The translations under genes were made by a program, and so were the position numbers. Under the pieces are notes generated by a model. That model saw nothing but the letters and a program-made list of their open reading frames with translations, ran no database searches and had not been told where the DNA came from. 10,943 nt of DNA from a virus (lineage: Duplodnaviria > Heunggongvirae > Uroviricota > Caudoviricetes), in IMG/VR virus record IMGVR_UViG_2681813225_000022. The stretch is one strand, 5' to 3'. Each line of letters begins with the position of its first letter. Position 1 is the first letter of the stretch. Shown here one piece after another: positions 3,272-5,530 of this stretch.

Positions 3272-5530
3272 ATGATCAAGTTATCTGAAAAAGGCGTGTT
3301 TCTCGCCAGTAATAACGAAATAATTGCCGAAGAACATTTCACCGGCGAAATTAAAAAGAAGAAGCCAAAAAAGGCACTATTGCCTGGTCTATTCTCTCTT
3401 CTCATAATACGTCCGGAAATATGGATAAACTTAAAATTAAGTTTGATTCATTAGCCTCTCACGATATTACCTTTGTTGGTATTGTACAGACCGCTAAAGC
3501 GTCCGGAATGGAACGTTTCCCGCTGCCGTATGTGCTGACCAACTGCCATAACTCACTCTGCGCCGTCGGCGGCACCATTAACGGTGATGACCATGTTTTT
3601 GGTTTATCGGCAGCGCAGCGTTATGGCGGTATTTTTGTGCCTCCGCATATTGCGGTCATCCATCAATATATGCGTGAGATGATGGCAGGCGGCGGCAAAA
3701 TGATCCTCGGGTCAGACAGCCACACCCGTTACGGTGCATTAGGGACAATGGCAGTCGGTGAGGGTGGCGGTGAGTTGGTAAAACAGCTGCTTAATGACAC
3801 CTGGGATATCGACTATCCGGGCGTGGTTGCGGTGCATCTGACCGGAAAACCTGCGCCGTATGTGGGGCCACAGGATGTGGCGCTGGCTATCATTGGCGCG
3901 GTGTTCAAAAACGGTTACGTCAAAAACAAAGTCATGGAGTTCGTTGGACCGGGCGTTAGCGCGCTCTCTACCGATTTCCGTAACAGCGTTGACGTGATGA
4001 CCACGGAAACCACCTGTTTAAGCTCCGTCTGGCAAACTGATGAAGAAGTGCATAACTGGCTGGCGCTGCACGGTCGCGGCCAGGATTACTGCCAGCTTAA
4101 CCCTCAACCGATGGCGTACTACGATGACTGCATCAGCGTTGATTTAAGCGCCATCAAACCAATGATTGCGCTGCCGTTCCACCCGAGCAACGTGTATGAA
4201 ATCGACACACTGAACCAGAACCTGACCGACATTCTGCGTGAGATTGAAATTGAGTCCGAACGCGTGGCGCACGGTAAAGCCAAACTCTCGCTGCTGGATA
4301 AAGTGGAAAATGGTCGCCTGAAAGTGCAGCAGGGGATTATCGCGGGCTGTTCTGGCGGTAACTACGAAAACGTCATCGCGGCGGCGAATGCACTGCGCGG
4401 TCAATCCTGTGGCAATGACACCTTCTCGCTGGCGGTTTACCCGTCATCACAGCCGGTGTTTATGGATTTAGCCAAAAAAGGTGTGGTAGCAGATTTGATT
4501 GGCGCAGGCGCAATCATCAGAACCGCGTTCTGCGGCCCATGCTTTGGCGCGGGCGATACGCCAATCAACAACGGATTAAGTATTCGCCACACCACGCGTA
4601 ACTTCCCGAACCGCGAAGGCTCTAAGCCAGCTAATGGGCAGATGTCAGCGGTGGCGTTGATGGACGCTCGTTCTATCGCTGCGACTGCGGCAAACGGTGG
4701 CTATTTAACCTCTGCCAGCGAACTTGATTGCTGGGACAACGTGCCGGAGTACGCCTTCGATGTAACGCCGTATAAAAACCGTGTTTATCAGGGCTTTGTG
4801 AAAGGGGCAACTCAGCAACCGCTGATTTACGGACCGAACATTAAAGACTGGCCGGAATTGGGTGCGCTGACTGACAATATCGTCCTGAAAGTGTGCTCGA
4901 AGATCCTCGACGAAGTGACCACCACCGACGAACTGATTCCTTCCGGTGAAACCTTCTTATCGTTCAAATCCGATTGGTCTGGCGGAGTTTACCCTGTCAC
5001 GCCGCGATCCCGGTTATGTTGGCAGAAGTAAAGCGACTGCTGAGCTGGAAAATCAGCGTCTGGCGGGGAATGTCAGCGAGCTGACAGAGGTGTTTGCGCG
5101 CATTAAGCAGATTGCTGGTCAGGAGCATATTGATCCGCTGCAAACTGAAATTGGCAGCATGGTATATGCGGTGAAACCAGGCGATGGTTCTGCGCGCGAA
5201 CAGGCGGCGAGCTGCCAGCGTGTGATTGGCGGTCTGGCGAATATTGCCGAAGAGTACGCGACTAAACGCTACCGTTCTAACGTCATCAACTGGGGGATGT
5301 TACCGCTGCAGATGGCGGAAGTGCCAACCTTTGAAGTGGGGGATTACATTTACATCCCTGGCATTAAAGCGGCGCTGGATAATCCGGGTACGACGTTTAA
5401 AGGTTATGTGATCCATGAAGATGCGCCGGTAACGGAAATTACGCTCTATATGGAAAGTCTGACTGCTGAAGAGCGCGAGATTATCAAGGCGGGTAGTTTG
5501 ATTAACTTCAATAAAAACCGTCAGATGTAA
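3272..5530 (+). pseudogene. ybhJ: Aconitase-family hydratase, disrupted by two frameshifts in this sequence
   Basis: One protein is spread over three overlapping ORFs in alternating frames (3248..3454, 3421..5031, 4946..5530). Continuity is restored by a shift inside the A-run at about 3353–3360 (...FTGEIKK then [17 protein letters not shown]...) and a second shift at about 4951–4957 (...DELIPSGET then [12 protein letters not shown]...). ATG at 3272 with GGAG 6 nt upstream. Fragments carry aconitase-like motifs ([15 protein letters not shown]). Confidence 0.78.

Follow-up and report, generated by a model that had tools for sequence, protein, structure and literature searches.

A 10,943-nucleotide stretch of DNA catalogued as a virus record (IMG/VR IMGVR_UViG_2681813225_000022; hereafter the window) corresponds to the Escherichia coli ybhD-ybhHIJ-ybhC-att-lambda region, with ybhH, ybhI, ybhC and a lambda-type integrase identified as neighbors by profile search. 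Positions 3272-5530 on the plus strand hold ybhJ, which encodes an aconitase-family Fe-S hydratase and which is broken in this DNA by two small deletions. We consider it very likely that this copy of ybhJ is a true pseudogene that has lost its function, arose by two slippage-type deletions, is inherited vertically and became fixed in the O177:H25 clone of Shiga-toxin E. coli (STEC). A first-pass annotation, made from the sequence of the window alone, had described the gene as split over three open reading frames (ORFs) by two frameshifts, to be explained either by a genuine pseudogene or by assembly indel errors. The split is borne out by alignment to intact alleles.

Strain OkiPb01713 (O5:H9), whose ybhJ is intact at 2262 bp, provided the first allele for alignment with the ybhJ of the window, followed by the alleles of K-12, LR-17-1, VREC0864 and CFSAN004176 (O145:H25). 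The alleles of K-12, CFSAN004176 and OkiPb01713 are intact; LR-17-1 and VREC0864 represent independent haplotypes that carry the first of the two lesions. Compared with the intact alleles, exactly two indels are present within 3272-5530, and ybhJ measures 2259 bp in the window versus 2262 bp (753 aa) in the intact form. The first lesion is a 1-bp deletion on the plus strand that shortens the A run of ATT-AAAAAA-GAA from six to five (A6 to A5) at codon 28/29, leaving A5 at 3353-3357; the first-pass annotation had correctly suspected this run, which it drew as 3353-3360, a range that includes the following GAA. The second, which it had placed near 4951-4957, is a 2-bp deletion of CT from a CTCT repeat at codons 561-562, with its junction at 4952/4953 (plus strand). 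Here ACCTCTTCT is changed to ACCTTCT; in codon context, GAA-ACC-TCT-TCT-TAT, that is GAAACCTCTTCTTAT, becomes GAAACCTTCTTAT. Because both lesions lie at short repeats, the usual substrate of slippage, replication slippage probably removed one A from A6 and one CT from CTCT. A plus-strand G>A substitution at 4127, giving Gly286Asp (G286D), and a synonymous change at Arg643 are each found only in the window allele among the six alleles compared.

The disruption of ybhJ is confirmed by this direct comparison to intact alleles and not by statistics. The K-12 gene, to which the first-pass annotation had proposed an alignment, is one intact ORF of 2262 bp, and the idea that K-12 shares the split frame structure is rejected. 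The two deletions change the length by a net −3, which leaves pieces 1 and 3 of the gene in a common frame. The second deletion is not compensatory, however, because 28 stop codons interrupt the start-codon frame between the lesions, which are 1.6 kb apart; its role as a suppressor of the first is ruled out.

The ORF list contains three ybhJ pieces on the same strand, at 3248/3272-3454 (frame 2), 3421-5031 (frame 1) and 4946-5530 (frame 2), and these match the NCBIfam model NF008503 ('hydratase', YbhJ; 753 positions) at profile positions 1-35, 51-567 and 563-753, respectively. Because piece 2 of this DNA scores 1106 bits and piece 3 scores 334 bits on this model (cut-off 641 bits), its identity as ybhJ is clear. 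The model is not spanned by any one ORF, and as judged from its reading frames the DNA is a ybhJ pseudogene and not a ybhJ gene. Piece 1 (3272-3454, plus strand) has the native start and encodes a 60-aa product made of YbhJ residues 1-29 and then 31 out-of-frame residues, ending at TAG. Piece 2 (3421-5031, plus strand) starts at the native Met51 codon, carries G286D and encodes residues 51-561, after which come 25 out-of-frame residues. Within piece 2 are the Pfam Aconitase domain (matched from profile position 17 onward), DSHT at 149-152, and Cys360 (in GCSGG), Cys421 and Cys424 (both in CGPCFG). In mitochondrial aconitase these cysteines correspond by alignment to Cys358, Cys421 and Cys424; the three [4Fe-4S] ligand cysteines and the Asp-Ser-His motif that mark the family are all encoded in this piece. 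Piece 3 (4946-5530, plus strand) is in the native frame and covers residues ~563 to 753. It is the only piece to encode the swivel domain (Pfam PF00694, G-S-x-R-E), whose GSARE at 640-644 corresponds to GSSRE of aconitase (residues 642-644 in aconitase), and it does so out of frame with the core, leaving the two domains unjoined.

Translation from the native ATG would halt after 60 codons. The middle piece would keep the Fe-S ligands and most active-site residues and would be without residues 1-50 and the C-terminal swivel domain, and the swivel-domain piece itself appears to have no usable translation start. Anti-Shine-Dalgarno duplex energies are −5.6 kcal/mol at the native start, −3.5 kcal/mol at ATG 3421 (3-nt spacing), +0.1 kcal/mol at GTG 4946 and −2.8 kcal/mol at GTG 5090. 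No credible start was found for piece 3: GTG 4946 lacks a Shine-Dalgarno match, and gene calling instead begins the piece at GTG 5090 (146 aa), which would cost it ~45 further residues. With duplexes at the internal starts weak or absent, the pieces do not each have the start and ribosome-binding site of their own that two subunits of the LeuC/LeuD or HacA/HacB type would require. The swivel domain of aconitases supplies substrate-binding residues, so the catalytic core alone should be inactive. Because of the early stop, the incomplete core and the swivel piece without a usable start, no complete hydratase should be makeable, and we infer that YbhJ enzyme activity has been lost.

The lesions are inherited, and they are independent of the sequencing platform. 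Three laboratories contributed the five complete genomes in which the 2.4-kb ybhJ region, and likewise the 10,943-bp window as a whole, is found in identical form. SMN152SH1, SMN013SH2 and SMN197SH3 (O177:H−, fliC H25; US cattle) are PacBio RS II assemblies, MiSeq-corrected with Pilon; OkiPb01679 (O177:H25; Japanese cattle, 2023-24) is an Oxford Nanopore (ONT) R10.4.1 assembly at 207x; and 2014C-3011 is a US human stool isolate from the Centers for Disease Control and Prevention (CDC). Documented sequencing methods cover four of the five, namely the three SMN strains and OkiPb01679. In a short allele-specific query, the exact A5 allele of the window was found in 7 of 4779 matching complete genomes (these five and two on unrelated haplotypes), and the exact CT-deletion allele in 5 of 5371, the same five as in the A5 query and no other lineage within the complete-genome collection. 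The double-deletion allele is further present in two NCBI draft assemblies and in seven or more assemblies, each made from a separate SRA run, and both deletions occur together with G286D in all ten independently assembled loci that we fetched (L008-L017). The exact 60-aa product of piece 1 is encoded on 46 contigs. The exact 536-aa product of piece 2 is encoded on 19, including two NCBI drafts and many single-SRA-run assemblies, and acts as a marker of the double mutant: its tail requires the CT deletion, and its separate gene call arises only through the first deletion.

The host lineage is STEC O177:H25, a cattle-associated group with chromosomes of 5.1-5.3 Mb, and the Shigella-like reduced genome in which the first-pass annotation had set the pseudogene is accordingly dismissed. 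The junction between an IS1 element and ybhD at the left end of the window is restricted to the same five complete genomes; in every other genome, the match to the window begins at base 24. The double deletion, G286D and IS1::ybhD together form a clean clonal marker of STEC O177:H25.

Because the first lesion lies in a homopolymer, a classic site of long-read error, an assembly or base-calling fault in a gene that is intact in the cell had to be considered. The presence of A5 in the unrelated LR-17-1 and VREC0864 could be read in the same way, as a product of error-prone assemblies, given that ybhH of VREC0864 is frameshifted as well. Nevertheless, this explanation has virtually no chance of being correct. 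No homopolymer is involved in the second lesion, which removes 2 bp; the two deletions recur unchanged in Illumina-polished PacBio, 207x ONT R10.4.1, CDC, draft and SRA-run assemblies; and they co-segregate perfectly with G286D, and with IS1::ybhD in the five complete genomes. Aligned over ~10 kb to CFSAN004176, the nearest relative with an intact locus, the window shows 15 substitutions and three indels, two of them in ybhJ and one a 2-bp deletion in a prophage excisionase gene (xis). Only one of the three is at a homopolymer site, and the systematic pattern of homopolymer errors for which the first-pass annotation had advised a check is absent from this alignment. We therefore rejected assembly error, because the lesions agree across platforms and isolates and the window contains no other homopolymer indels. 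The case illustrates that when a long-read assembly shows a frameshift in a homopolymer, the frameshift may be real. It is also very improbable that a real double mutant retains part of its function, either by a −1 slip at 3367-3373 or by a restart at Met51 (ATG 3421), with the swivel piece made separately and associating in the manner of LeuC and LeuD. Lesion 1 puts an A_AAA_AAG heptamer (3367-3373, plus strand) in register with the shifted frame; in the zero frame of ATG 3272 it has the X_XXY_YYZ form of a programmed −1 site, and a slip there would restore the native frame, altering only E30K, E31K and A32P. Few motifs in E. coli are as slip-prone as A_AAA_AAG, but without stimulators even the best heptamers of this class slip at ~0.3%, and at ~3.7% at most when the 3′ context is optimal (PMC4066793). 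Near the ybhJ heptamer, we found no upstream Shine-Dalgarno-like element and no convincing hairpin or pseudoknot 5-9 nt downstream; the only stem (3372-3385, 5 bp) starts within the heptamer itself, and the fold of the 80 nt downstream has an energy of −12.5 kcal/mol (z-score only −1.7). The −1 sites of the dnaX and IS911 type have the identical A_AAA_AAG, and its register in the mutant frame of ybhJ is correct; unlike those sites, however, the ybhJ heptamer has neither a Shine-Dalgarno-like nor a hairpin stimulator, is not conserved, and is in register by accident of the deletion. The A5 allele of the window is missing from 4772 of the 4779 matched complete genomes, the examined alleles of K-12, CFSAN004176 and OkiPb01713 are unshifted with A6, and the architecture as a whole occurs in a single clone and in none of the other E. 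coli genomes that were searched. With the heptamer present but no stimulator, no conservation and so low an unstimulated efficiency, programmed −1 frameshifting was rejected. Termination-reinitiation is conceivable at ATG 3421, with the piece-1 stop 31 nt farther downstream, but a restart at Met51 would forfeit 50 residues and with them the first part of the Pfam Aconitase domain. As to a separate swivel subunit, lesion 2 (residue 561) falls between the end of the Pfam core (470) and the point from which LeuD-type small-subunit profiles align (about residue 582, ~20 residues further on), a position compatible with a break between core and swivel domain; a split LeuCD-like enzyme was rejected on the lack of credible starts or ribosome-binding sites in piece 3. 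Inspection of the overlap at 4934-5031 found no known +1 slippery motif, and +1 recoding at lesion 2 was rejected on this ground. If fission were nonetheless true, this E. coli clone would offer a natural and very recent example of it.

The preferred reading, a genuine pseudogene without function, is compatible with a proposal that concerns only the cause of the loss: once IS1 had removed the repressor YbhD, derepressed Fe-S YbhJ or flux through its pathway might have become costly, and ybhJ knock-outs would have been favored. We regard such selected loss as unlikely. It draws on the recurrence of −1 frameshifts in the A-rich tract of ybhJ, which have struck several haplotypes. LR-17-1 and VREC0864 (loci L005 and L006), together with 60-aa 'aconitase family domain protein' entries such as those of E. 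coli LT-68 and G58-1, share the change from A6 to A5 and the same type of truncated product, and across ~117 public contigs the 60-aa product type comprises 12 sequence variants (P0016-P0027), of which P0019 stems from a different nearby indel. Because these alleles are on haplotypes other than that of the window, and because LR-17-1 and VREC0864 are without the CT deletion, G286D and IS1 in ybhD, they must have arisen independently or, in some cases, reflect sequencing error. On this comparison of alleles, the A-rich tract AAAAAAGAAGAAGCCAAAAAAGG (3353-3373) is evidently a recurrent −1 indel site. Recurrence at A6 is expected from mutation bias alone, however, and the frequency of A5, at only seven of the complete genomes, is compatible with that bias; some of the recurrent instances may be sequencing errors. 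After the first frameshift further lesions would be neutral, so that multiple hits are expected under plain decay, and no intermediate genotype that could order the IS1 insertion and the two deletions was found in 5426 complete genomes. Relaxed selection on the ybhD-ybhHIJ locus is suggested by the IS1 insertion in ybhD and G286D in ybhJ, which would both fit it. Several observations weigh against an interpretation of simple decay and complete loss. The lineage-specific counts (three nonsynonymous and four synonymous changes) are too small to demonstrate relaxed selection, and ybhH and ybhI are intact, so the locus as a whole has not decayed. The in-register A_AAA_AAG and the position of Met51 inside the tail of piece 1 leave room for some translation of the middle piece, and lesion 2 lies roughly at the natural LeuC/LeuD split point, which makes a two-piece enzyme structurally conceivable.

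The disrupted state of ybhJ is already known from RefSeq, and this is an ordinary lineage-fixed pseudogene, of slight significance beyond bookkeeping. In genomes identical to the window, the Prokaryotic Genome Annotation Pipeline (PGAP) labels the gene 'hydratase; frameshifted', as in the pseudogenes CR916_RS30665 (SMN152SH1) and C7A05_RS29815 (2014C-3011), which are 100% identical to the window allele; these annotations state neither the position and nature of the lesions nor their status as lineage markers. The orthologous K-12 gene (b0771; WP_000593938.1; NF008503) likewise lies between ybhI and ybhC and differs at ~1.4% of nucleotides (~98.6% identity). It encodes the same Cys360, Cys421, Cys424, DSHT and GSARE as the window allele in a single ORF of 753 codons, from which the window allele departs by the loss of A at codon 28/29, the loss of CT at 561-562 and G286D, to give its three ORFs. 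A literature search found no functional characterization of ybhJ, only data on YbhD and ybhH/ybhI and a deletion in BL21(DE3). Because galM-ybhJ is wholly absent from BL21(DE3), ybhJ is dispensable in the laboratory.

AcnD and PrpF of the 2-methylcitrate cycle pair an aconitase-family dehydratase with a PrpF isomerase. The ybhHIJ genes resemble this arrangement in that YbhJ is encoded beside the PrpF-family YbhH (TIGR02334 prpF, 7e-55) and a carboxylate transporter, and they differ from it in that YbhJ reaches only 51 of the 1420 bits that the AcnD model sets as its cut-off. This analogy supports, and does not prove, a tricarboxylate-handling module. The first-pass annotation had proposed that the ybhHIJ catabolic module is inactivated in this strain. 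The claim holds for ybhJ, which is broken; it does not hold for ybhH and ybhI, which are full-length (ybhH with two amino-acid changes), and the status of the three genes as a single pathway is itself a proposal from their arrangement.

The left end of the window (1-23, no strand assigned) is the end of the IS1-family element inserted in ybhD, as annotated by PGAP in an identical genome. It is followed by an N-terminal fragment of ybhD (24-344, minus strand; PGAP annotation and genome matches), the gene for the LysR-type repressor of ybhH/ybhI, which the insertion has severed. Deletion of ybhD in K-12 strongly upregulates ybhH, which identifies YbhD as a repressor of ybhH/ybhI (PMC9068703). 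Because this repressor is split by IS1, ybhH/ybhI may be derepressed in the O177:H25 lineage. The two genes follow on the plus strand and are open: ybhH (528-1580; profile match and PGAP) encodes a PrpF-family isomerase / 4-oxalomesaconate tautomerase, and ybhI (1656-3089; profile match, PGAP and K-12 comparison) encodes a DASS-family anion permease identical in protein sequence to that of K-12. In OkiPb01713, an ONT-only assembly (locus L002, 1-890), ybhJ is intact and the adjoining ybhI is annotated as frameshifted, which may reflect either a real lesion or a base-calling error.

Substitutions were polarized with four outgroups. The lineage-specific changes in ybhH are V60V, R226C and A290T (the amino-acid changes being at window positions 1203 and 1395); ybhI has two synonymous changes, ybhC has none, and a T>C change lies at 3270, two bases before the ybhJ ATG. 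In all, the clade carries three disruptive events in ybhD/ybhJ and three amino-acid changes in ybhH/ybhJ, with ybhH and ybhI still open; the combination hints at relaxed selection, in numbers too low for proof. Strains of O177:H25 are natural ybhD/ybhJ double mutants, and their comparison with the closely related O145:H25, in which the locus is intact, could probe the function of ybhD-ybhHIJ.

Both spacers that flank ybhJ contain repeat elements. The 182-bp ybhI-ybhJ spacer holds the core of an enterobacterial repetitive intergenic consensus (ERIC) element (core 3133-3176, element ~3100-3225); in a pattern search, the core matched each of the two standard ERIC primer sequences without a mismatch. 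Between ybhJ and ybhC, at 5545-5748, are tandem repeats of the repetitive extragenic palindromic (REP) or bacterial interspersed mosaic element (BIME) type, consisting of a 74-nt unit in two copies (92% alike) and a 35-nt unit in two copies (91% alike). Within them, at 5625-5695, Rfam assigns naRNA4, a REP-derived nucleoid-associated RNA, at 63.2 bits (gathering score 59.5); this match, downstream of ybhJ, was the only one in the Rfam scan, which gave none inside ybhJ.

The first-pass annotation had also remarked that Shigella-like reduced genomes are rich in IS911 and cryptic prophages. The window does contain an IS911-like fragment and a prophage integrase. A truncated IS3-family OrfA transposase at 10654-10911, which PGAP calls an incomplete transposase, resembles IS911 OrfA and probably explains that remark; more IS3-family pieces lie just past the end of the window. 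The prophage that adjoins ybhC has an intact integrase gene (7182-8252). Its xis gene (8230-8447) carries, relative to CFSAN004176, the 2-bp deletion noted above, of AT at 8366/8367, and is annotated by PGAP as frameshifted; this prophage may be unable to excise.

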